Assembly: GCA_965230515.1 (NCBI GenBank)
Contig: OZ246007.1
Location: 3,251,012 to 3,315,011, forward strand
DNA length: 64,000 nt
Direction of reading: 5' to 3'
Source of the DNA: Pseudomonadales bacterium
Lineage (GTDB): Bacteria; Pseudomonadota; Gammaproteobacteria; Pseudomonadales; IMCC2047
Both the position numbers and the translations under genes were made by a program. The notes beneath the pieces were generated by a model, which did not search any database, was not told where the DNA came from, and was given only the letters and a program-made list of their open reading frames with translations. Numbering within the stretch: position 1 is the first letter of the stretch; each line of letters opens with the position of its first letter. Shown in pieces: positions 5,891-46,299 of the stretch.

Positions 5891-8800
5891 TTAAGAAGCC
5901 GCAATATCCTCGTTATTTCCAACAAGGTTTTTTTGTTTGCGATAAGCCATGCGGTATAAGCCTGGTAGTACCAACAGCGTTAATAGTGTGGAGGATATAA
6001 TTCCCCCTATCACCACTGTCGCTAGTGGGCGCTGAACTTCTGCGCCGGTGCTGGTGTTAAGTGCCATCGGCAGAAAACCCAGTGCGGCAACCAGAGCGAC
6101 CATCAGTATTGGCCTTAACCGCAGCATCGCACCCTGTCGAATAGAGGTATCGATATCATCGCCTTGATTCAATCTATCTCTAAACGCGGAAACCATCATG
6201 ACGCCCGTCAGCACTGAGACTCCGCACAGTGTAATAAAACCAACGCCTGCGGTGATGGAGAGTGGGATATCTCGTAGCCATAGTGCGATAACGCCGCCGG
6301 TTAATGCCAAGGGCACGCCACTAAAAACCAGCGCCGCATCCTTGGCCGAACCAAAGGTCATCATCAGCAGGGCGAAAATCATGACTAATGTGATAGGTAC
6401 TAACAGGCTTAAACGCTCAGAAGCCGATTGCAACTGTTCAAATGTGCCGCCGAAATCCAGCCAATACCCTGGAGGTAAGGCAACCTGCTGCTCAATCTGT
6501 GTTTGCACATCGGCCACAAAGCTACCCAAATCACGCCCTCGTACATTGGCGCTCACCACCAGTCGACGCTTGCCATTTTCTCGGGAAATCTGATTCGGTC
6601 CTGGTGCAAGAGTGAGTGTTGCCACTTCACTGAGGGGGACGTAACCACCTTGCGGTAATGGAACTGGTAAGCGCTCAAGTGCACGCAAATCATTGCGGAT
6701 TTCCTCTGCCACTCTGACCACAATGGTGAAACGTCGATCTCCTTCAAATATCAGGCCTGCTTCCTCGCCGCCTGTTGCCGCCGCAATAATATCTTGCACA
6801 TCAGCGACATTGAGACCATAGCGATATAAAGCAGGGCGATTGGCTTCGATTGACAGGATGGGCAATCCGGAAACCTGCTCTACTTTAACGCCTTCCGCAC
6901 CTTCAATACCATTGAGAACGGCGGCAATCTCTGTGCCGGATTTCAGTAACTGATCGAGATCATCTCCATAAACTTTAACGCCCAGATCCGATCTAACACC
7001 GGAGATAAGTTCATTAAAACGAAGCTGGATCGGTTGGCTAATTTCGAAGGCATTACCAGGGATCAGTGCCAGTTTTTCCTGAATATCTTCCAGTAATTGC
7101 GCTTTGGATTTATCAGGGTTCGGCCAGTCTTTGTGGTCTTTTAACATTACATAACCGTCAGAGATATTGGGCCCCATGGGGTCACTGGCCACCTCTGCGG
7201 TGCCCACTCGCGAAAAGTAGGTTTTCACTTCGGGAATTTCCAGTACCGCACGTTCCAATTGAAACTGCATATCTAGCGATTGTGTAAGGCTGGTGCCGGG
7301 AATACGCAAAGCCTGAATGGCAATATCTCCCTCGTCCAGGTTTGGAATAAATTCAGCTCCCATTCTTGTAGCAAGTCCGCCAATGGCTATCACAAACAGC
7401 ACAGCCCCTGCGAGTACAGCTAGGCGAAACTTAAGTGCCCAGGCCAAGATGGGGGTGTACGCACGTTTTGATTGGCGAACAATAAGGTTGTCTTTTTCCT
7501 TAATATGACCGCTCAGTAAAAGTGCCACGGCTGCGGGAACAAAGGTGAGTGACAACACCAGTGCCGATAAAAGTGCCATAATCACCGCCATGGCCATAGG
7601 GGTAAACATTTTCCCCTCTACCCCGGTGAGCGCCAGGATGGGTATGTTAACTAGAATTACCACCAGAACACTGATTAAACTGGGGGTGAAGACCTCACGC
7701 GTTGCGGCGAACACCGTTTGAAAACGTTCGTCCAACTTCAGCGTTCGACCGAGTTGGTGCTGTCGGCCAGCCAATCTGAGAATACAGTTTTCCACAATGA
7801 TCACTGCGCCATCGACAATAAGACCAAAATCCAGTGCCCCCAAACTCATTAAGTTGGCACTGACCTTGGTTTGAACCATGCCTGTCATGAGCATCAGCAT
7901 GGATAGCGGAATAACCATCGCGGTAAGCAAGGCGGCCCGCACATTGCCAAGCATCACCAACAAAACGACGACCACTAATACCGCACCTTCAAGTAGGTTC
8001 TTCTGCACGGTAGCAATGGTCTTATCAACCAGTATGGTTCGGTCATACACTGGCTCGGCGATAACACCTTCCGGTAGTGTTTTGTTAATCTCAACCAGCT
8101 TGGCGGAAACAGCCTCTGAAACGCTGCGGCTATTGCCGCCCAGCAGCATGACGGCTGTGCCGAGGACAGTCTCTTCACCATCAAGGGTCGCAGCGCCAGT
8201 TCGAAGCTGTTTGCCAAAACTAACCTTAGCTACATCGGCTACAGTTATCGGAATACCGTCTTTATGGGCGACTATGACCCGTTGGATTGCAGCGATATCT
8301 GCCACTTGTCCCGGCGCACGGATCAGGTATTGCTCGCCGTTTTTCTCGATATAGCCAGCGCCGACATTGGCATTATTTTTTTCTACAGCGTCGACAATGT
8401 CATCAAAGGTCAGCTCAACTGCCAACAGTTGAGCGGGGTCAGGGGTGATATGAAATTCTTTTTCAAAGCCGCCGATGGTATTAATCTCGGTTACCCCTGG
8501 CACTAATCGTAGTTGAGGACGGATCACCCAGTCTTGCAGTGTACGCAATGCCGTGGCGTCGTATTTTTCACCATTGGCTTGTCGGGCATCGTCGTCTGCA
8601 TGTACCGCGTAGTGAAAAATCTCTCCGAGACCGGTTGCAACAGGCCCCATCACGGGCTCAATGCCTGATGGCATGTCACTTTTAGCCTGCTGCAGCCTTT
8701 CATTAATTAGGTTTCGTGCAAAGTAGATGTCCGTTCCCTTTTTAAATATGACCGTTACTTGTGAGAGTGCGTATCGTGATAGAGAGCGGGTACTTTCGAC

Positions 8801-30759: not shown

Positions 30760-31410
30760 ATGCATGGCGAATCAGGTTACGGTCTTTGGACCCTGGTGAT
30801 ATTAAATTCAGCGATATTTATCTTCTTTGCGTTCAGTTTTACCAAGCCGCAAACGAAAACCGACTGGCGTAGCTTTGGCGCTTTCTCGGCGTTTATTATT
30901 GCCCTGTTTACCGAGATGTACGGTTTTCCGTTAACCATCTATTTCCTCTCCGGCTGGCTGGCGGAAAAGTATCCGGGCATCGATTTTCTGTCCCACGAGA
31001 ACGGCCATCTTCTGCATACCGTTTTTGGATTTGAAGGCAATCCCCATTTCGACCCGCTGCACATTGCCAGCAATGTGCTGATCGTGTTGGGTTTCTTCCT
31101 ACTTGCCTCAGCCTGGAATGTGCTACACAAGGCGCAGCAAACACGGTCGCTGGCGACCACCGGATGGTATGCCCGCTGCCGTCACCCCCAGTACATCGCC
31201 TTTATTTTAATCATGTTCGGTTTCCTGTTGCAGTGGCCGACCTTACCCACTGTGGTGATGTTTCCGATACTGGTGGTCGTCTATGTTCGATTGGCGAAAC
31301 GTGAAGAACGAATGGCATTGGAAGAATTCGGCGATGACTATCGCCGCTATATGGAAACTACGCCGGCGTGGTTTCCGAAATTCAGCGTTAATAAAACAGT
31401 TTCAACTTGA
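30760..31410 (+). CDS. ICMT/PEMT-family membrane methyltransferase (copy 1)
   Basis: 216 aa polytopic protein. RCRHPQYIAFILIMFG...REERMALEEFGDDYRRYMETTP is the ICMT-type SAM-binding C-terminal region. Confidence 0.72.
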   Translation: MHGESGYGLWTLVILNSAIFIFFAFSFTKPQTKTDWRSFGAFSAFIIALFTEMYGFPLTIYFLSGWLAEKYPGIDFLSHENGHLLHTVFGFEGNPHFDPLHIASNVLIVLGFFLLASAWNVLHKAQQTRSLATTGWYARCRHPQYIAFILIMFGFLLQWPTLPTVVMFPILVVVYVRLAKREERMALEEFGDDYRRYMETTPAWFPKFSVNKTVST

Positions 31411-31423
31411 TGAGGATAGTCCA

Positions 31424-31906
31424 ATGAAAAAACAAATCTCCACAGTGGTAATAGCAGCCGCACTTGCTACTCCGGTCTTCGCCGCAGGCGACCATCAACA
31501 TGGCGCGAGTCAGCAAGATAAGAAAATGGAAGGCGGGATGATGATGGACAAGATGGACCATAGCAAAATGGGCATGATGGATCACAGCAAGATGGGTGGC
31601 ATGCATGAACAGATGCAGAAAATGCATCAGCTCATGGGGCAGATCACCAAGGAGGATGACCCGAAAAAACGTGAGCAATTGATGCAACAACACATGGAAA
31701 GCATGCAACAGGGTATGAAATCCATAAAGGAGTCCATGGGCGAAATGAGAAGCAATAAGGGTAAAAGCAAGGCCGCACCGGCCATGAACATGGAGCAGCG
31801 AATGGATGTGATGCAACAGCGCATCGATATGATGGAAATGATGATGGATCAAATGGTGTCGCACAGTGCAGAAGAGAAGAAACTGCACCGGCATAAAAAA
31901 CGTTAA
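31424..31906 (+). CDS. Met/His-rich periplasmic protein
   Basis: The ATG at 31424 follows GAGGA. Signal peptide MKKQISTVVIAAALATPVFA, then MEGGMMMDKMDHSKMGMMDHSKMGGMHEQMQKMHQLM and further Met-rich helices. Confidence 0.6.
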   Translation: MKKQISTVVIAAALATPVFAAGDHQHGASQQDKKMEGGMMMDKMDHSKMGMMDHSKMGGMHEQMQKMHQLMGQITKEDDPKKREQLMQQHMESMQQGMKSIKESMGEMRSNKGKSKAAPAMNMEQRMDVMQQRIDMMEMMMDQMVSHSAEEKKLHRHKKR

Positions 31907-32014
31907 CGGAAAATTGAGTGGCGTGTCAATCGCACCGCTCAATCTGGCCTGAGAGCGATAAGCTGGCTTATATCAGTGATAGCAACAGAAGTGAGAAATG
32001 AAAGGAGTAATGTC

Positions 32015-32359
32015 ATGACAAAGAAAGAACACAGACTGGGTGTTTCTGAAGCCAATCTGGTTAACAGGCATCTGAAAATTGAGACTGCACCCGCAGAATC
32101 TATTCGAGCGGCAGTCGCTGAAATCGATGAGATCTACGGGATGGATTCGGTTGCCTTCGACGAAAAACATTACCGGTTAGATCTGGCCTATGACGCTTCA
32201 AGGTTGTCGATAGAGGATGTGGAAAAGGTGATGACGACACATGGACTGGAGCTGAGCCATGGTTGGTGGACCCAACACAAGGAAAGTAACTACCGTTTTG
32301 TCGACCAGAACGTAAAAGACAACGCCAAGCATGAGCCATGGAGTTGCCATAAAAAGTAA
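32015..32359 (+). CDS. hypothetical protein with an HMA-like (ferredoxin-fold-looking) domain and a C-terminal CH motif
   Basis: GGAG lies 7 nt before ATG 32015. 114 aa. The region LDLAYDASRLSIEDVEKVMTTHGLEL...SCHKK is paralogous by eye to the C-terminal half of 48872-49369. Confidence 0.45.
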   Translation: MTKKEHRLGVSEANLVNRHLKIETAPAESIRAAVAEIDEIYGMDSVAFDEKHYRLDLAYDASRLSIEDVEKVMTTHGLELSHGWWTQHKESNYRFVDQNVKDNAKHEPWSCHKK

Positions 32360-32419
32360 CGTCATGTGTGCATGCACCAGCAACACCTCCAAGAGGCATG
32401 AAATGATGGGGATATCAGG

Positions 32420-33925
32420 GTGAGCAGACATATTCTACAAGCGGTGGCGATGGGCATTGACACCCATCAGGAGCCAGTTGTGTATATGCAGGAGGACTGC
32501 CATATCTGCCGCGCAGAGGGCTTTAACGCGAACACGCGCTTGTCAATCAGCACCAGAACTGAGCAGTTGATTGCGACGCTTAATGTGGTTAGAAACGATA
32601 AGCTATTAGTGGGACAAATCGGGTTGTCCAAGATTACGCAGCAACGTCTAGATATTAAGGATGGCGAGTCGGTAAGTGTCAGCCATGCACAGGTTGTGAG
32701 GTCATTAAGCGCAGTACGTAAAAAAATTTACGGTCATAAACTCAGTGATCAGGAGATTGCCGATATCGTCGAGGACATCAGCGCCCATCGCTATTCAGAT
32801 ATCGAAATCGCGAGTTTTCTTAGCGTATGTGCAGGCAGTCGCTTGGACGTGGATGAAATCATCGGGCTCACTCAGGCCATGGTAGCGTGCGGTAAACGAT
32901 TGAAATGGGCGGATCAAACAAAAGTTCTCGATAAACATTGCATTGGAGGATTGCCGGGCAACCGCACCACGCCTTTGGTGGTTTCCATAGTCAGCGCGGC
33001 GGGACTGACGATTCCCAAAACCTCGTCGCGAGCAATCACCTCTCCGGCGGGTACTGCGGATACCATGGAAGCACTGACTACCGTCAATCTGGAAATTACC
33101 GACATTCAACGTGTTGTAGCACAAACCCATGCCTGTCTCGTCTGGGGCGGGGCGGTGAATCTGAGTCCAGCTGATGATTTGTTGATTCGCATTGAACGGG
33201 CCCTGGACTTAGACGGCGAAGGACAGTTGATCGCCTCAGTGCTATCCAAAAAAATCGCCGCCGGTTCCACTCATGCGGTGATTGATATTCCCGTCGGCTC
33301 CACAGCTAAGGTGCGCTCGCAAAAAGATGCCGAGCGACTCTCTTCACTTTTTACCCAAGTGGGGGCTGCCTGTGGTATTCAAATTCGCTGCCTCATTACG
33401 GATGGTAGTCAACCGGTGGGACGAGGTATCGGCCCGGTAGAAGAAGCGCGCGATGTGTTGGCGGTATTGCAATGCGAGCACAATGCGCCACAGGATTTAC
33501 GAGAGCGCGCTTTATTTTTAGCGGCACATCTATTTTCACTCGCTTATTCAGAGCGTTATGAACAAGGGTTGGAAAGAGCAATCGCAATTTTGGATGAAGG
33601 TAAAGCCTGGCAGCAGTTTCAGCACATTTTGGCTGCACAGGGTGGGATGAAAGCCCTGCCTGACCCCAGCTACCAACATACCGAAGCGGCCACAACTGCG
33701 GGCACACTTACCGCTATCGATAATCGTCAACTCGCGCGCTTGGCGAAGCTGGCAGGTGCTCCGGCGACAGAGGCTGCGGGGATGCGTCTTCATACACGTG
33801 TCGGCGAAAAGATTGAGGCTGGACAGTCTTTATTTACCCTCTATTCCGATACGATCGGAGAGCAACAATACGCGATGGAGTTTTATCGTCAATCGATGAT
33901 TTTTACTATCGAGGAGGCGCAATGA
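32420..33925 (+). CDS. thymidine phosphorylase-family protein of the long AMP-phosphorylase-like type
   Basis: 501 aa. An N-terminal extension of about 85 aa (GIDTHQEPVVYMQEDCHICRAEGF...ATLNVV...GESVSVSHAQ) precedes the glycosyltransferase-3 core (DKHCIGGLPGNRTT; SSRAITSPAGTADTME). Confidence 0.82.
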   Translation: MSRHILQAVAMGIDTHQEPVVYMQEDCHICRAEGFNANTRLSISTRTEQLIATLNVVRNDKLLVGQIGLSKITQQRLDIKDGESVSVSHAQVVRSLSAVRKKIYGHKLSDQEIADIVEDISAHRYSDIEIASFLSVCAGSRLDVDEIIGLTQAMVACGKRLKWADQTKVLDKHCIGGLPGNRTTPLVVSIVSAAGLTIPKTSSRAITSPAGTADTMEALTTVNLEITDIQRVVAQTHACLVWGGAVNLSPADDLLIRIERALDLDGEGQLIASVLSKKIAAGSTHAVIDIPVGSTAKVRSQKDAERLSSLFTQVGAACGIQIRCLITDGSQPVGRGIGPVEEARDVLAVLQCEHNAPQDLRERALFLAAHLFSLAYSERYEQGLERAIAILDEGKAWQQFQHILAAQGGMKALPDPSYQHTEAATTAGTLTAIDNRQLARLAKLAGAPATEAAGMRLHTRVGEKIEAGQSLFTLYSDTIGEQQYAMEFYRQSMIFTIEEAQ

Positions 33926-34848
33926 GCGAAGCGACGGCTGTGAACGATAAATCTCCGCTGATATTTTCCCTGCACAATCATCCGTTGGTTGAATCTCTCG
34001 CTACTGCGATTGGTGGTCAGCGAGGCGACTTCAATGCCCGAAGGTTTCCCGATGGGGAGTCCTATCTGCGTATTCATTCTGCTGTAGAAAATCGCGCCTG
34101 TATTGTGGTGGCTGACCTGTCACACCCAAACACCAAATATCTACCGTTGTTGTTTTTATTGGAAACACTGCGGGAGCTGGGAGCAACGCAAGTGGGGTTA
34201 GTGGCGCCTTACCTCAGTTATATGCGTCAGGATCGCCGTTTTGTCGATGGGGAAGCGGTTACTTCACGTATTTTTGCCAAGTGCCTTTCTCAACATGCTG
34301 ATTGGCTGGTCACCGTCGATCCACATTTGCATCGCTATCATTCCCTGGATGAAATCTATTCCATACCCAGTCGTGTTGTGCAAGGGGCTCCGGCATTGGC
34401 GCACTGGCTCAAAACGCAAAGCAACCTATTGTTGGTTGGGCCGGACAGCGAAAGCGAGCAATGGGTTTCTGAGATTGCTGCCTTTAGTCAACATCCTTTT
34501 GAGATTGGAGAAAAACAGCGCTTCGGGGATCGCCATGTCGAAGTGATGCTGCCCGACATCAACGAATTCAGGGATAGAACGGCTGTGATTATCGACGACG
34601 TAATCTCCAGTGGGCAGACGATTTTGGAATGTGTTAAAACACTTCAGTCCAAAGGAATCGACAAGATTCAGTGTGTGGCGGTACACGGCATATTTGCCGA
34701 TCACTCCGATAAAACCTTACTGGCCTCAGGCCTGAGCCAGCTGGTCACGTCCAATACCATCCCCCATCCCTCCAATGCTATCGATATTACGTCGCAACTG
34801 ATTGCGCCCGTGATCAGCATGCTTAAATTGCCAGGACAATCATTATGA
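33922..34848 (+). CDS. ribose-phosphate diphosphokinase (PRPP synthetase)-like protein, divergent
   Basis: 308 aa with the PRPP-binding loop AVIIDDVISSGQTI. The R5P region reads VTVDPHLHRY, whereas E. coli Prs reads TVDLHAEQ. ATGA overlap with the upstream gene, and a GAGGAGG SD. Confidence 0.8.
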   Translation: MSEATAVNDKSPLIFSLHNHPLVESLATAIGGQRGDFNARRFPDGESYLRIHSAVENRACIVVADLSHPNTKYLPLLFLLETLRELGATQVGLVAPYLSYMRQDRRFVDGEAVTSRIFAKCLSQHADWLVTVDPHLHRYHSLDEIYSIPSRVVQGAPALAHWLKTQSNLLLVGPDSESEQWVSEIAAFSQHPFEIGEKQRFGDRHVEVMLPDINEFRDRTAVIIDDVISSGQTILECVKTLQSKGIDKIQCVAVHGIFADHSDKTLLASGLSQLVTSNTIPHPSNAIDITSQLIAPVISMLKLPGQSL

Positions 34849-36200
34849 AAATCACCTTTATCGGCGGTACCGAGACCGTTACCGGTTCAAAATTTCTGCT
34901 GGAAACCGACACGACAACTGTATTAGTCGATTGCGGTTTGTTCCAGGGCTACAAGTGGCTGCGGGAGCGCAATTGGCAAACCTTGCCTCTGGACATCGAC
35001 AAACTGGATGCGGTGCTGCTCACTCACGCACATCTGGATCACTCCGGCTATATCCCGGTGCTATACAAGTGTGGCTTTCGCGGCCCGGTGTTTACCCATC
35101 ACGCCACCAAGGCCCTGTGTCAGATCTTATTGGCCGACAGCGGCCATATCCAGGAGGAAGACACCAGGTATTACAGCAAACATAAACTGGGCAAGCACGC
35201 TCACCCTGAGTCGCTTTACGACCGCCAAACGGCGGAAGCCAGCATGACGCTATTTCAGTCCGTGGAGTTTGATGAACAGATCGAAGTCGGAGATATCCGT
35301 TTTTATCTGCAGCCCGCCGGGCATATTCTCGGTGCCGCCAGCATTATCGTGGAAGCGGAAGGGAAACGAATCGGCTTTTCTGGTGATGTCGGTCGCTTCG
35401 ATGATGTGCTGATGAACCCCCCTCGGCTATTGCCGGAGCTGGATCTGCTGTTGATGGAGTCCACTTACGGCAACCGCCGGCACGACACCCAAGATCCGTT
35501 TCAGCAGTTGGCGGAAATTGTTAACCGTGTCGCTAAAAGCGGCGGCGTGCTGCTGGTCCCGGCCTTTGCGGTAGGGCGGGCGCAGGCCTTGCAACATCTG
35601 TTGGCGACCCTGATGGATCAGGACGATATCCCCAAAATGCCGATCTATCTCGACAGCCCCATGGCGATCAAAGTATCGGATATTTTTTGCCAGTTCAGTG
35701 ACCAGCATCGGTTAAACCACGAGCAATGCTACCGCATGTGCGACTCCATCACTTATACCCGTACGGTGGATGATTCCAAGGCGATTGCGGGACAGGCTTT
35801 CCCCCATATTGTTATCGCTGGCAGCGGTATGGCTACCGGGGGTCGTATTCTCCACCATTTTAAACGCCTGTTAGGCAGCTCTAAAACCACGGTGCTGTTT
35901 ACCGGTTATCAGGCGGGCGGCACTCGCGGCGCAAAAATGCTGGAGGGTGTCGAGAGCATCAAAATTCACGGTGAGTGGATTTCAAATAATGCGCAGGTGG
36001 CGGTCTTGCACGGTTTGTCCGGACACGGCGATTACATGGAGATCGAGCAATGGCTCAAACAATCCGCATTACAAAAAAACATGTCGATTCAACTGGTTCA
36101 TGGTGATCCCGATGCCCTGGAAGGCATGCGCGATCATTTGCGACGCACCACGGCCTTCGATGTAGAGGTCGCCGGCTATCAAACAATACTCAAACTGTAG
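34845..36200 (+). CDS. MBL-fold beta-CASP nuclease (RNA-specificity-domain type)
   Basis: 451 aa with the HxHxDH motif LLTHAHLDHSGYIP, later GHILGAA, ESTYG and a C-terminal SGHGD typical of beta-CASP enzymes. ATGA overlap with the upstream gene. Confidence 0.82.
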   Translation: MKITFIGGTETVTGSKFLLETDTTTVLVDCGLFQGYKWLRERNWQTLPLDIDKLDAVLLTHAHLDHSGYIPVLYKCGFRGPVFTHHATKALCQILLADSGHIQEEDTRYYSKHKLGKHAHPESLYDRQTAEASMTLFQSVEFDEQIEVGDIRFYLQPAGHILGAASIIVEAEGKRIGFSGDVGRFDDVLMNPPRLLPELDLLLMESTYGNRRHDTQDPFQQLAEIVNRVAKSGGVLLVPAFAVGRAQALQHLLATLMDQDDIPKMPIYLDSPMAIKVSDIFCQFSDQHRLNHEQCYRMCDSITYTRTVDDSKAIAGQAFPHIVIAGSGMATGGRILHHFKRLLGSSKTTVLFTGYQAGGTRGAKMLEGVESIKIHGEWISNNAQVAVLHGLSGHGDYMEIEQWLKQSALQKNMSIQLVHGDPDALEGMRDHLRRTTAFDVEVAGYQTILKL

Positions 36201-36209
36201 GAGCCTGTT

Positions 36210-36668
36210 ATGCAAATTGAAACCTTAAAGGATGTGCTGAACTGGACCCGCGATTTTCATCAGCATTTGGCGAGCTGTTTACACCACTGCGACGACCGGA
36301 ATCAAAGTGAACGTGCACGACTTTTGCTGGAGTACCTTGCTGAGCATGAACAAAAACTGGTTGCGGTGCTTGACAGCTTTGCACAAAGCGCGGGCGTTAA
36401 TGCATTGAACACTTGGTGTTACGAATATCTCGATAAACACCCCATTGTTCGTCATGTCCAATGCGATCAGCCTTTCACGCAAATGAACACCGAGGAAATC
36501 ATTTCGGAAATAACAGGGCAGCACAGCCAGGTGGTAGACCTTTACCGCTATTTGTACAGCCGGGCGGAAACCGATTCAGCGCGAAACTTATTGGCTCAGT
36601 TATTGGACTTGGAGGAACATGAAACGATGCGTATGACGCAAAGCGCCAACCGCCTGGAAGATATATAA
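36210..36668 (+). CDS. hypothetical helical protein (His/Cys-containing), last gene of the four-gene operon
   Basis: 152 aa. GGAG SD lies 9 nt after the upstream stop. All-helical-looking, with FHQHLASCLHHCDD. No family recognised. Confidence 0.5.
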   Translation: MQIETLKDVLNWTRDFHQHLASCLHHCDDRNQSERARLLLEYLAEHEQKLVAVLDSFAQSAGVNALNTWCYEYLDKHPIVRHVQCDQPFTQMNTEEIISEITGQHSQVVDLYRYLYSRAETDSARNLLAQLLDLEEHETMRMTQSANRLEDI

Positions 36669-43923: not shown

Positions 43924-46299
43924 ATGTTTCCGACAAATGATGAAGATTTACACCGCATCCGGCAGCGAGCGTCCCTGTACCGGGAGCGCTATCCGGCGTT
44001 CGCCCACTGGGCCGAGGGTTACGGCGTCATAAAACATAGTGACGAAACTCAGATCCGGGTGTTTGATTTGTGCCAGCAATTGTTGTGTAAGGACCGCTAT
44101 GATCAGCTTGATGGCCCGCTGGCTATTTTTTGTGCGGCGGACCGCCTGACCAGCGCCGCGATGTGGTTGGTGGCACACATGACATACGCTTCTAGGGTTT
44201 ATCTCGACGGTCGCGCATTGACGGCTGAGGACTTCAAGGCCAACCCGCAGGGACATACCGGTGGCTCGCTGAATATGGCGCCAGCCTATGTCGGCTATAT
44301 GGTCGCCAATACATTGGCTGGCACAACCCGCAGCTGGTTGATGGGGCAGGGGCACTGTGTCGCCGCAATCGACTCGGTCAACGTGCTGTTGGGCAATTTA
44401 TTGCCAGAACAGGCCGCTCGATATGGTTTGACGAATCAGGGTTTATCGCATCTGATCGAGGACTTTTACAGCTATGCCATTAACCAGGAAGGCCGCCCCG
44501 GCGTGCCCTTAGGCAGCCATGTCAATCCCCACACGGCTGGGGGTCTTATCGAAGGGGGGTATCTGGGTTTTGCCGAATTGCAGTATGTGCATATGCCGCT
44601 GCCGGGTGAACATCTGGTGGCGTTTCTCAGCGACGGTGCGTTCGAAGAACAACGCGGCAGCGACTGGGCCAGCCGCTGGTGGCGAGCGGAGGACTGTGGT
44701 CTGGTGACGCCGGTAATGATCGCCAATGGTCGTCGTATAGACCAGCGATCCATCATGTATCAACAAGGTGGTTTGGAATGGTTTTTTCAGCACCTGCAAC
44801 TGAATGGGTTCTATCCGATCGCCATTGATGGCAGGGATCCGGCGGCGTTTATTTGGGGAGTTTTTGAATCCGAAGCCCGTTTGCAGGCCTGCAGCGCACA
44901 GGTTCAGGCTGGCCATATGAGTTATCCGGTGAAATTACCTTACTTGATTGCCGAAACGATAAAAGGCTATGGTTTTTATGGTGAGGGAACCAATGCCGCA
45001 CATGGTGCGCCGCTACCTGAAAATCCTAAGTATGACCTTTCATCCCGTGGCTTGTTTAATGAGTCTGTAGCAGGTTTATTTGTATCTGAAAAAAAGCTCA
45101 GGCAGGCCGTATCGCAATTAAACACGCATGATAAAGATGCCCGGCTGCCGGAGAAGGATCATCCACTCTGCCGGAGGAATATTTCTCTTAGCTCAATCCC
45201 GGCATTTCAATGGGTAACCGTGGGTGCCGAATATTCCCCCATGGAAGCGATTGACAGGCAGTTCATTGCTCTAGTGTATGCTAATCCTCAATTGAGGGTA
45301 AGGGTTGGCAATCCCGATGAATTGCGCAGTAACCGTATGGGACATACGCTTGATAAGCTGAAACACCGTGTGCTGAAACAGGAAGACGGCGTGGCCGAGT
45401 CGATTCAGGGTGCTGTTATCACAGCCCTGAATGAAGAAGCTGTGGTGAGCGCAGCGCTAGGTAATAAAGGCGGAATTAACCTCGTGGTTTCCTATGAAGC
45501 CTTTGCCGTGAAAATGCTGGGAGCGATCCGTCAGGAGATCATTTTTGCACGTCACCAGAAAGAGTTAGGCCGTGCCCCTCAGTGGTTGTCGGTACCGGTA
45601 ATCGCTACATCGCATCTCTGGGAGAACGGTAAAAACGAACAGTCACACCAGGATTCATTATTTGGCGAGGCCTTAATGGGTGAAATGAGCGATGTAGCGC
45701 GTGTGGTATATCCCGCCGATGCGAATAGCGGCATCGCCTGTTTAAACGCCTGTTATCGGACACAGGGACAAATCTGGGCGCTCACGGTACCGAAACAACA
45801 GGTGAAGACCATTTTTAGCAAACAACAGGCGCAGCTCCTGGTGAGCCAGGGTGCTATAACCCTGGGGGAGAGCAACAATGCCGAAGTGCAGCTGGTTGCG
45901 GTGGGGGCTTATCAGCTCGATCTTTGTATCCAGATCCAACAAGAGCTTAGCGAAAATGGTATTTCTAGCTTTGTCACCTATTTGATGGAACCCGGCCGTT
46001 TTCGTAAGCCCAGAGATCGATCGGAACAGGCCTTTGTTAGCAGCGTTTCAGCTAAAGAAGCGCTGTTTCCTTCGAACATAGCCCTGCGTGTGTTTGTCGC
46101 TCACTTGCGCCCGGAAACCCTGCTTGGTGTGTGCAGGCCTTTGGACCTGGGACCGCAGCGCTGTATTGCCTTCGGCTACACCAACCAGGGCGGCACGTTG
46201 GACACCAACGGGCTGTTTAAGGCCAATGGCTGTGAACTTGAAACTGTAGCAGTTGCTGCGATACGGAAGTTAGTCCTTCTAAAAAAGAGTGAGTTATGA
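43924..46299 (+). CDS. xfp: phosphoketolase (xylulose-5-P/fructose-6-P)
   Basis: 791 aa, the typical Xfp length. TPP-enzyme motifs include GHTGGSLNMAPAYVGY and EGGYLGFAE. Confidence 0.9.
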   Translation: MFPTNDEDLHRIRQRASLYRERYPAFAHWAEGYGVIKHSDETQIRVFDLCQQLLCKDRYDQLDGPLAIFCAADRLTSAAMWLVAHMTYASRVYLDGRALTAEDFKANPQGHTGGSLNMAPAYVGYMVANTLAGTTRSWLMGQGHCVAAIDSVNVLLGNLLPEQAARYGLTNQGLSHLIEDFYSYAINQEGRPGVPLGSHVNPHTAGGLIEGGYLGFAELQYVHMPLPGEHLVAFLSDGAFEEQRGSDWASRWWRAEDCGLVTPVMIANGRRIDQRSIMYQQGGLEWFFQHLQLNGFYPIAIDGRDPAAFIWGVFESEARLQACSAQVQAGHMSYPVKLPYLIAETIKGYGFYGEGTNAAHGAPLPENPKYDLSSRGLFNESVAGLFVSEKKLRQAVSQLNTHDKDARLPEKDHPLCRRNISLSSIPAFQWVTVGAEYSPMEAIDRQFIALVYANPQLRVRVGNPDELRSNRMGHTLDKLKHRVLKQEDGVAESIQGAVITALNEEAVVSAALGNKGGINLVVSYEAFAVKMLGAIRQEIIFARHQKELGRAPQWLSVPVIATSHLWENGKNEQSHQDSLFGEALMGEMSDVARVVYPADANSGIACLNACYRTQGQIWALTVPKQQVKTIFSKQQAQLLVSQGAITLGESNNAEVQLVAVGAYQLDLCIQIQQELSENGISSFVTYLMEPGRFRKPRDRSEQAFVSSVSAKEALFPSNIALRVFVAHLRPETLLGVCRPLDLGPQRCIAFGYTNQGGTLDTNGLFKANGCELETVAVAAIRKLVLLKKSEL

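Follow-up and report, generated by a model that had tools for sequence, protein, structure and literature searches.

A conserved, mobile pairing of an AMP-phosphorylase-type enzyme with a Prs-like enzyme in bacteria, possibly a nucleotide-salvage module

What joint task might be served by a phosphorylase, a ribose-phosphate pyrophosphokinase and a ribonuclease (RNase) that are encoded end to end in one bacterial operon? The question is raised by four genes in a 64,000-nucleotide stretch of DNA from a Pseudomonadales bacterium (GenBank assembly GCA_965230515.1, contig OZ246007.1, positions 3,251,012 to 3,315,011 of the forward strand), which was analysed as a whole and is called the window below. 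A preliminary description, made from the sequence alone, had read these genes as encoding an adenosine monophosphate (AMP) phosphorylase-like enzyme, a divergent relative of the phosphoribosyl pyrophosphate (PRPP) synthetase Prs, a beta-CASP nuclease and a helical protein, and had suggested that they salvage RNA or nucleotides during growth arrest. In our analysis, the phosphorylase and the Prs-like enzyme emerged as a pair that almost certainly performs one joint task. Tentatively, we read the locus as a conserved, horizontally mobile nucleotide-salvage module, a shunt that may lead from RNA nucleotides to pentose phosphate and PRPP under stress or low oxygen.

Reading of the open reading frames (ORFs) of the window returned four co-directional genes on the forward strand, where the preliminary description had placed them (Table 1). 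The junction between the phosphorylase and Prs-like genes has the sequence GAGGAGGCGCAATGAGCG and that between the Prs-like and beta-CASP genes the sequence CAGGACAATCATTATGAAA; in each, the stop codon of one gene overlaps the start codon of the next. The third junction (CTGTAGGAGCCTGTTATG) contains the stop codon TAG at 36198-36200, a GGAG that overlaps this stop, and the ATG of the fourth gene at 36210, with a gap of 9 nt between the genes. The operon, its two ATGA overlaps and the gap behind GGAG were all seen in the sequence as described. The translational coupling that these overlaps imply is also echoed elsewhere: a 4-nt overlap at the phosphorylase/Prs junction was found in 27 of 50 scored junctions from other genomes.

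Table 1. Positions of the operon genes, their overlaps and two nearby features within the window
Feature	Position	Strand	Remarks
AMP-phosphorylase-type glycosyltransferase-family-3 phosphorylase (gene 1)	32420..33925	+	501 aa, GTG start
Prs-like ribose-phosphate diphosphokinase homologue (gene 2), NF005537/PRK07199	33922..34848	+	308 aa
Beta-CASP metallo-beta-lactamase-fold RNase homologue (gene 3)	34845..36200	+	451 aa
His/Cys/Glu-rich four-helix-bundle protein (gene 4), predicted	36210..36668	+	152 aa
ATGA start/stop overlap, phosphorylase to Prs-like	33922..33925	+	behind GAGGAGG
ATGA start/stop overlap, Prs-like to beta-CASP	34845..34848	+	read from sequence
Small upstream ORF	32015..32359	+	114 aa; ATG behind GAAAGGAG; mechanical ORF from GTG 31976
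'Phosphoketolase family' protein	43924-46299		791 aa; XFP Pfam models E 4e-41 and 4e-11

The conservation of the arrangement was assessed from two anchors. The phosphorylase-anchored set comprised one genome per species and consisted of the best 80 of 593 relatives confirmed in an alignment-based scan; the Prs-anchored set comprised 60 metagenome loci of the DPHLH family with at least 1.6 kb of sequence upstream. The 80 genomes spanned Alpha-, Beta- and Gammaproteobacteria, Bacteroidota, Leptospira, Planctomycetota and Acidobacteriota, and Legionella drancourtii was represented by two phosphorylase loci. The Prs-like gene lay directly downstream of the phosphorylase gene in 64 of the 80 genomes and within 10 kb of it in 69. 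Seen from the other anchor, the phosphorylase gene lay directly upstream of the Prs-like gene in 54 of the 60 metagenome loci, elsewhere in the locus in three, and was absent from three. Because the 4-nt overlap recurs and the pair is syntenic in 80-90% of loci with either anchor, the arrangement is not a matter of chance. The near-obligate and often translationally coupled pairing further suggests that the two enzymes act in one pathway, probably at adjacent steps.

The nuclease is less tightly bound to the pair. A beta-CASP gene adjoined the pair in 42 of the 80 genomes (36 upstream, six downstream), and all three genes were contiguous in 33. The usual order was RNase, phosphorylase, Prs; among the 80 loci, the order seen in the window was found only in its closest relatives (L001-4 and L007), and four of these five other loci kept the ATGA overlap between the Prs-like and beta-CASP genes. 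A lack of synteny in other genomes, which the preliminary description had named as an argument against its proposal, was not seen: the trio is syntenic across phyla, with the adjacency of the two core genes given above. Its treatment of the three genes as one unit stood in part, in that the phosphorylase-Prs pair is the core and the nuclease is frequent, yet dispensable and mostly first in order.

The module is also mobile. It was present in 115 plasmid records, and its proteins retain approximately 50% identity across phyla. On plasmid pWTT2411 of Methylophaga pinxianii, the module has 84.8% DNA identity to that of the window, and the gene order is MerR, HMA protein, phosphorylase, Prs, metallo-beta-lactamase (MBL) protein, 152-aa protein, DUF5676. 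On a Variovorax plasmid, genes for MerR, HMA, DUF2933 and ICMT lie upstream of the module and a heavy-metal ATPase gene lies downstream. The copy in the window is on a 3.58-Mb contig and presumably chromosomal, while copies of relatives are on plasmids. A pair found in at least five bacterial phyla and over 100 plasmid records has a joint task that is not described in the literature we found.

The search for gene fusions, which the preliminary description had proposed, yielded one that supports a joint task. A library-wide search with the Prs-like protein returned a 724-aa protein (P0272) that joins a Prs-like domain at the front to a phosphorylase core lacking the N-terminal extension, so that the domain order is reversed. 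It is a singleton whose uninterrupted ORF, on a short-read contig, comes immediately behind a Crp/Fnr-like regulator fragment, the C-terminal helix-turn-helix. Twelve phosphorylase-Prs fusions in the natural order and one triple fusion were discounted as unreliable. Two of the natural-order fusions sit on low-coverage, error-prone long-read contigs with split neighbouring genes, and one (802 aa) is a frameshift variant; most contigs of the population it comes from carry the pair unfused (508 + 294 aa). In this metagenomic population (locus L084, 7480-7540; P0416, P0533, P0532), both versions occur on several contigs. Overlapping stop and start codons allow such read-through fusions to be made easily, by mutation or by sequencing error.

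The identity of the enzymes bears on whether they are anything other than ordinary salvage paralogues, that is, a thymidine or pyrimidine-nucleoside phosphorylase, a second PRPP synthase isozyme and an unrelated RNA-processing nuclease that are co-located on mobile DNA. The product names in the public annotation (thymidine phosphorylase family protein, ribose-phosphate diphosphokinase and MBL fold metallo-hydrolase) fit such an explanation. The Arg, Ser and Lys that contact the base in the thymidine phosphorylase family also appear to be kept (IERAL at 258-262 and SVLSKK at 273-278) in comparison with the Escherichia coli enzyme.

Profile scores of the phosphorylase point away from ordinary paralogues. 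It passed the cut-offs of NF003338 (650.3 bits, cut-off 434) and of TIGR02645 (577.5 bits, cut-off 434.6), the models of an uncharacterised long branch named 'thymidine phosphorylase family protein'. It fell far under the cut-offs of the DeoA/Pdp equivalogs NF004490 (201.7 against 269) and TIGR02644 (196.6 against 409), and it also failed the further DeoA/Pdp models NF004747 (168 against 559) and TIGR02643 (143 against 571). The choice between TIGR02645-type and DeoA that had been put to hidden Markov models was therefore decided for the long, AMP-phosphorylase-type branch. The best solved relative was the Thermococcus AMP phosphorylase 4GA5 (E-value 5e-99, residues 63-488), with approximately half of the residues identical as judged by eye; pyrimidine and thymidine phosphorylase structures gave much weaker matches (E-values of E-40 to E-27).

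Two motifs, DKHCIGGLPGNRTT (residues 171-184) and KTSSRAITSPAGTADT (residues 200-215), are common to the protein and 4GA5. In the form HS/C-IGG-x-PGN-K/R-T and KTSSRAITS-x-AGTAD they match 4GA5 residue by residue and are nearly invariant in 73 orthologues, and they differ from DeoA-type sequences. The N-terminal extension of about 85 aa, attributed earlier to the long family, is borne out by where the models begin to match: at residue 8-10 for AMP_phos and TIGR02645, and at 97-98 for the Pfam Glycos_trans_3N and DeoA models. Both the extension and the AMP-phosphorylase-type motifs speak against an ordinary thymidine or pyrimidine-nucleoside phosphorylase. In the public annotation of the same genome, the protein has 479 aa and starts at M23 (P0001). 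We consider the GTG at 32420 the better start, because residues upstream of M23 (L6, G12, I13, T15, E18 and Y22) are conserved among homologues and the orthologues have approximately 500 aa.

The Prs-like enzyme is of a distinct type as well. It passed the cut-off of NF005537/PRK07199 (361 bits, cut-off 322) and that of the general Prs model TIGR01251 (188 bits, cut-off 113), and it scored 133.9 against the cut-off of 297 of the housekeeping model NF002320 (PRK01259), with all class I equivalogs far under their cut-offs. Passing TIGR01251 and retaining the canonical catalytic residues would suit a second PRPP synthase isozyme. The closest structures were those of the archaeal class III Prs 1U9Y, 4TWB and 3LPN, to which motifs at residues 41-46 (FPDGE), 102-106 (RQD), 132-138 (with the His of the PP site), 197-204 (the flexible K-x-R loop) and 225-233 (the ribose-phosphate loop, DD..S.G.T) could be aligned. 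Both motifs quoted in the preliminary description were found in the sequence, VDPHLHR at 132-138 and DDVISSGQT at 225-233. Across 58 orthologues, FPD-E, RQD, D133-P-H-L-H-R138 and K198-x-R200-x-G-D vary little or not at all, and the ribose-phosphate loop has the form DD[IV]IS[TS][GA][RQH]T. The sequence TVDPHLHR is invariant in the NF005537 subfamily, whereas the same position reads NPH or EPH in archaeal class III and D-L-H in class I. The difference from canonical Prs noted earlier at VDPHLHRY is real. It is no aberrant change in a canonical enzyme; since the motif is invariant in the 58 orthologues and the catalytic motifs are intact, the apparent divergence is the signature of a subfamily and not the mark of a degenerate copy.

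The class III PRPP synthase of Methanocaldococcus jannaschii (1U9Y) is the top-scoring solved relative, and FPD-E, RQD, PH, the E-K-x-R loop and DD-IS-G-T align between the two. The bacterial subfamily differs from it by the invariant D-P-H-L-H-R, by R, Q or H replacing the second glycine in the ribose-phosphate loop, and by a gene that almost always adjoins a phosphorylase gene. Both core enzymes thus resemble archaeal enzymes more than bacterial housekeeping ones. A 2026 preprint divides bacterial PRPP synthases into classes II and IV-XI and does not consider gene context. With the 80-90% reciprocal adjacency and the recurring 4-nt overlap across phyla, which would be unexpected for co-located paralogues, we regard ordinary salvage paralogues as a rather unlikely explanation.

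The third protein contains the Pfam domains Beta-Casp (119 bits), Lactamase_B and RMMBL (44.7 bits). Its closest structure is the Thermus RNase TTHA0252 (2DKF; E-value 1.5e-68, full length), and its MBL motifs 1-4 and beta-CASP motifs A, B and C are complete (D29, H61-x-H-x-D-H66 with HAHLDH at 61-66, H160, D181, E205, H394 and H419). It scored under the cut-offs of the named equivalogs aCPSF1, Cas14 and RNase J. The earlier assignment to beta-CASP nucleases is strengthened by the closest match being a characterised RNase. The likeness to TTHA0252 of Thermus thermophilus extends to the end-to-end alignment, the domain set and the metal motifs; TTHA0252 is a stand-alone enzyme of RNA degradation, whereas its homologue in the window is coupled translationally to genes of nucleotide metabolism.

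How might these activities combine? In the salvage shunt that we favour, an archaeal-type nucleotide phosphorylase acting on AMP or other nucleoside monophosphates (NMPs) and a non-housekeeping, Prs-like pyrophosphokinase would form an obligate core that is translated as a coupled unit. The TTHA0252-type RNase, where attached, as it usually is, would degrade RNA to 5'-mononucleotides. The phosphorylase would then split NMP and phosphate into the free base and ribose-1,5-bisphosphate, and the Prs-like enzyme would work at the level of PRPP, either by forming PRPP canonically from ribose 5-phosphate or by acting directly on ribose-1,5-bisphosphate. Enzymes of the Prs family move phosphoryl groups between ATP and C1 of a ribose 5-phosphate skeleton. 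Ribose phosphate from RNA could in this way be recycled to PRPP, which would re-balance the purine, pyridine and deoxynucleotide pools. As an alternative sink, a pentose-phosphate/phosphoketolase-acetate kinase route, with the nearby GAPDH, may yield adenosine triphosphate (ATP) when respiration is limited. In this scheme, what the enzymes act on, which way the flux runs, what becomes of ribose-1,5-bisphosphate and how the operon of the window is regulated are inferred, whereas the gene structure, family assignments, intact catalytic motifs, reciprocal synteny and plasmid carriage were seen in the sequences. If borne out, the chemistry could reveal how RNA is recycled to nucleotides, cofactors or energy in non-growing or oxygen-starved bacteria, and it could extend ribose-1,5-bisphosphate metabolism by a bacterial branch.

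Archaeal AMP phosphorylase converts NMP and phosphate to the base and ribose-1,5-bisphosphate. Compared with the AMP phosphorylase/pentose bisphosphate pathway of Thermococcus kodakarensis, gene 1 aligns with the solved enzyme, has the same N-terminal extension and active-site motifs, and would be expected to catalyse the same chemistry. The partners differ: in the archaeal pathway they are ribose-1,5-bisphosphate isomerase and type III RuBisCO, whereas the constant partner in the module is the Prs-like enzyme, joined by the beta-CASP RNase. The hosts of the module are also bacterial, and the module is borne on plasmids. We see the module as the archaeal AMP-phosphorylase theme varied by a change of partners; its genes are annotated everywhere and listed in expression tables.

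Two further systems serve as functional analogies only, as their protein families are unrelated to those of the module. E. coli PhnN converts ribose-1,5-bisphosphate to PRPP, and the AMP nucleosidase Amn manages adenylate pools by cleaving AMP. In their textbook activities, the two core enzymes of the module share AMP alone, and for this reason an action of the Prs-like enzyme on ribose-1,5-bisphosphate is attractive, if speculative. Carried further, this would make the pair an undescribed bacterial two-enzyme route from RNA-derived NMP via ribose-1,5-bisphosphate directly to PRPP, or, in reverse, a route that draws on the glycosyl-phosphate bond to make ATP from adenosine diphosphate or AMP. 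It would work without isomerase and RuBisCO, be switched on when respiration fails and be spread by plasmids, and the invariant HLHR motif of the Prs-like enzyme would suit it to a bisphosphate substrate. We consider this specific form unlikely; if true, bacteria would have their own equivalent of the archaeal pentose bisphosphate pathway.

The link of the salvage shunt to low oxygen comes from published expression data. In Bradyrhizobium diazoefficiens, bll3117 (thymidine phosphorylase family), bll3116 (Prs) and bll3115 (MBL hydrolase) are listed together as a predicted operon that has a FixK2 box at -74, and deletion of fixK2 lowered expression of bll3117 6.6-fold and that of bll3115 30.6-fold (PMC9104804). 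In microoxia, the three gene products increased at both the protein level (log2 changes of 2.1 for bll3117, 4.4 for bll3116 and 2.9 for bll3115) and the transcript level (5.1-fold, 7.7-fold and 15.4-fold, respectively) (PMC6515984). A phosphoketolase-family/acetate kinase gene pair, bll2518-2517, also belongs to the FixK2 regulon (PMC9104804). The three product names and the order phosphorylase, Prs, MBL are as in the window. Both papers list the genes bll3117-3115 and leave their function unaddressed (PMC9104804, PMC6515984).

In Burkholderia cenocepacia, BCAM0300, a 'metal-dependent RNase', was up 30-fold at low oxygen, and PhaC, Pta (phosphate acetyl/butyryltransferase), AckA, universal stress proteins and a cation ATPase of the lxa locus were induced alongside it (PMC3721108). 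The window similarly has genes for PhaC, MaoC-Pta, AckA, a P-type ATPase and a beta-CASP protein. The likeness has limits: the Burkholderia low-oxygen gene table contains no phosphorylase or Prs-like gene (the words 'phosphorylase' and 'pyrophosphokinase' are absent from the text; PMC3721108), and the scanned ORFs of the window include no universal stress protein, Anr-type regulator or class II ribonucleotide reductase. The non-growing or oxygen-starved bacteria for which such recycling would matter include root-nodule symbionts and relatives of cystic-fibrosis pathogens.

Several observations weigh against the salvage shunt. On the side of chemistry, the phosphorylase scored 479.7 bits over residues 8-498 against the AMP_phos equivalog TIGR03327 (EC 2.4.2.57), which is under the cut-off of 535. 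The proposed identity as an AMP phosphorylase therefore stood at the level of the branch and not at that of the equivalog, and, given this cut-off, the name AMP phosphorylase is one that we infer. AMP as the sole compound shared by the textbook activities of the core enzymes gives no obviously useful net reaction. No ribose-1,5-bisphosphate isomerase or RuBisCO domains were found among the scanned neighbours in the window, and six-frame translations of the window and the 80 loci contained no RuBisCO or e2b2 motifs in a crude regular-expression search confined to these loci. In line with the earlier remark that no characterised bacterial pathway has this composition, our literature search found no paper on the chemistry or biochemical characterisation of the bacterial module; it also found nothing on the module in Legionella or in studies of metal islands.

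On the side of regulation, the likeness to the Bradyrhizobium operon is one of product names and gene order. The window operon, unlike the Bradyrhizobium one, has no FixK2/FNR box (TTGAT-N4-ATCAA-like, up to two mismatches) at 31215-32456 and lies inside a copper island; the genes directly flanking it are copper and metal genes, as they are in its closest relatives. Neither a sigma-70 promoter match nor a terminator turned up around the operon in a promoter and terminator scan. Among the ORFs scanned, which were most of those of at least 110 aa from 14.9 kb to the end of the window, no gene for a universal stress protein or a Crp/Fnr regulator was found. In other genomes, FNR-like boxes upstream of the module were only weakly enriched (21 of 79 loci against a background of 13.4 +/- 3.2), with five against 1.8 when at least nine of ten positions had to match. 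The suggestion that the operon acts during growth arrest or anoxia thus retains its published oxygen link in Bradyrhizobium and loses it in the window: because the window is a copper/stress island without an FNR box, that suggestion rests on relatives and not on the locus itself. The regulatory signal in the window could be metal stress as well as oxygen.

This leads to a second rival explanation, in which the operon is a metal (copper) stress module, part of a MerR/Cu-controlled island that repairs or replaces damaged nucleotide cofactors or RNA, with the fourth protein as a metal-binding partner. The surroundings of the operon invite it. The window is a long co-directional array, and 14900-63500 forms one copper and membrane-stress island. 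Upstream of the operon lie genes for Cus efflux (CusCBA), MerR, CopA, cupredoxin, a PII-like protein, DUF2933, ICMT and a Met/His-rich protein. Downstream lie genes for DUF5676, a permease, PhaC, enoyl reductase, MaoC-Pta, AckA, the phosphoketolase-family protein, a Rieske protein and two SPFH proteins, followed by YHS, FtsH, MgtC, LemA, TPM, GAPDH, CFA synthase, a PLD-type enzyme, cis/trans isomerase and a Na/H exchanger. The operon lies between CusCBA-MerR-CopA-cupredoxin-DUF2933-ICMT and DUF5676. A locus of Haliea salexigens (L001, NZ_AUHJ01000003.1) has 98-99% protein identity to the window for SPFH/FtsH and 84-92% for the trio, a discrepancy that points to a mosaic island with recently exchanged segments. 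The MerR, HMA and DUF5676 genes on pWTT2411 and the MerR, HMA, DUF2933, ICMT and heavy-metal ATPase genes on the Variovorax plasmid repeat this setting, and tblastn placed a P-type ATPase within 10 kb of the module in 41 of the 80 loci. The conserved His and Cys residues of the 152-aa protein and its weak fold matches to CopM and DUF305 also fit.

Against a role in metal stress, there is no known biochemical link between these enzymes and metal handling, and the association could reflect common carriage on plasmids and islands, given the 115 plasmid records. Many loci have no metal genes and have instead genes for universal stress proteins, CBS proteins, fermentative dehydrogenases or phosphoketolases. 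Universal stress protein genes were near the module in 12 of the 80 loci, CBS protein genes in nine, D-2-hydroxyacid dehydrogenase genes in ten and major facilitator superfamily (MFS) transporter genes in 11; a phosphoketolase-family gene was within 10 kb in 14 loci and AckA in nine. These neighbours, apart from the MFS transporters, also count in favour of the salvage shunt. Moreover, the expression data that we found all point to oxygen. We therefore regard a metal stress module as quite improbable.

It is very improbable that the module is an anti-phage or abortive-infection system in which a nuclease, a nucleotide-cleaving phosphorylase and a protein with the phosphoribosyltransferase (PRTase) fold deplete nucleotides: plasmid and island carriage, phage-like replication genes near some loci, the presence of PRTase-fold and MBL proteins in known defence systems and weak domain-level PADLOC matches (PRTase_III-A, E 3.5e-4; Avs1a, E 8e-4) would suit it, but PADLOC-DB gave no meaningful family match (E 3.5e-4 or weaker at the domain level), the neighbours are metabolic and stress genes and not defence genes, the Bradyrhizobium genes are regulated by FixK2 and microoxia, and approximately 50% identity across phyla is unlike fast-evolving defence genes.

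Returning to the salvage shunt, the pentose steps that the preliminary description had listed as missing from the window (ribose-1,5-bisphosphate isomerase, phosphopentomutase and epimerase) may be available after all. The stretch 6-20 kb downstream of the operon contains genes for a phosphoketolase-family protein, acetate kinase and GAPDH, and housekeeping pentose-phosphate enzymes could cover the rest. The phosphoketolase-family protein is a divergent member of its family, as its matches to the XFP Pfam models are moderate. On plasmid 3 of Variovorax sp. WDL1 (L083, 22150-26171), genes for gluconokinase, ribulose-phosphate 3-epimerase and 6-phosphogluconate dehydrogenase lie ~7-11 kb past the module; these might supply the steps listed as missing. 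Separately, a protein of ~280 aa with an ATP-cone and an Mrr-type restriction-endonuclease domain is encoded within ~2 kb of the module in ten of the 80 loci, e.g., at 17268-18113 in L058.

The fourth gene, which had been counted as a member of the operon's set, falls outside the conserved module: it was present in five of the 80 loci and looks like an accessory of the metal island. Its 152-aa product matched no Pfam or NCBIfam family. The search found 235 homologues; of the 120 that were listed, nearly all have a length of 152 aa, and the few with an organism name are from marine Gammaproteobacteria. Conserved residues are H17, C23, C27, H46, E47, C70, H82, C85, H105, E135, H137 and E138. The AlphaFold model (predicted local distance difference test score 86) has four long helices, and Foldseek returned weak matches (template modelling scores of 0.45-0.62, none with an E-value below 1e-3) to ferritin-like TM1526, YciF, Dps, DUF305 and CopM. 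Judging by the model and the conserved residues, the protein is probably a metal-binding four-helix bundle that deserves a family of its own. The NCBI name 'ATPase' was rejected, as no ATPase features were found; some IMG records label the family 'bacterioferritin', 'DisA' or 'DUF305'.

A small ORF ends 60 nt before the phosphorylase gene and has homologues directly upstream of that gene in seven of the 80 loci (L001-3, L005, L009, L019 and L027); in this clade, the transcription unit possibly starts with it. Its product matched no Pfam or NCBIfam family. The Methylophaga HMA protein is encoded at the same position and was considered as a counterpart; this was rejected, since the two proteins have no similarity and the small ORF has no family match. 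An alignment of the seven loci revealed no conserved element upstream of the ORF. An inverted repeat, ATTGA-N8-TCAAT, lies at 31913-31930, in the intergenic region just upstream of the ORF. It was not accepted as an FNR box, as its spacing is wrong. Its conservation in relatives could not be shown. Members of the small-ORF family carry a C-terminal motif like N-x-K-D-N-A-K-H-E-x-x-x-C, and Haliea has two copies in tandem (L001, 7710-8069 and ~8070-8420).

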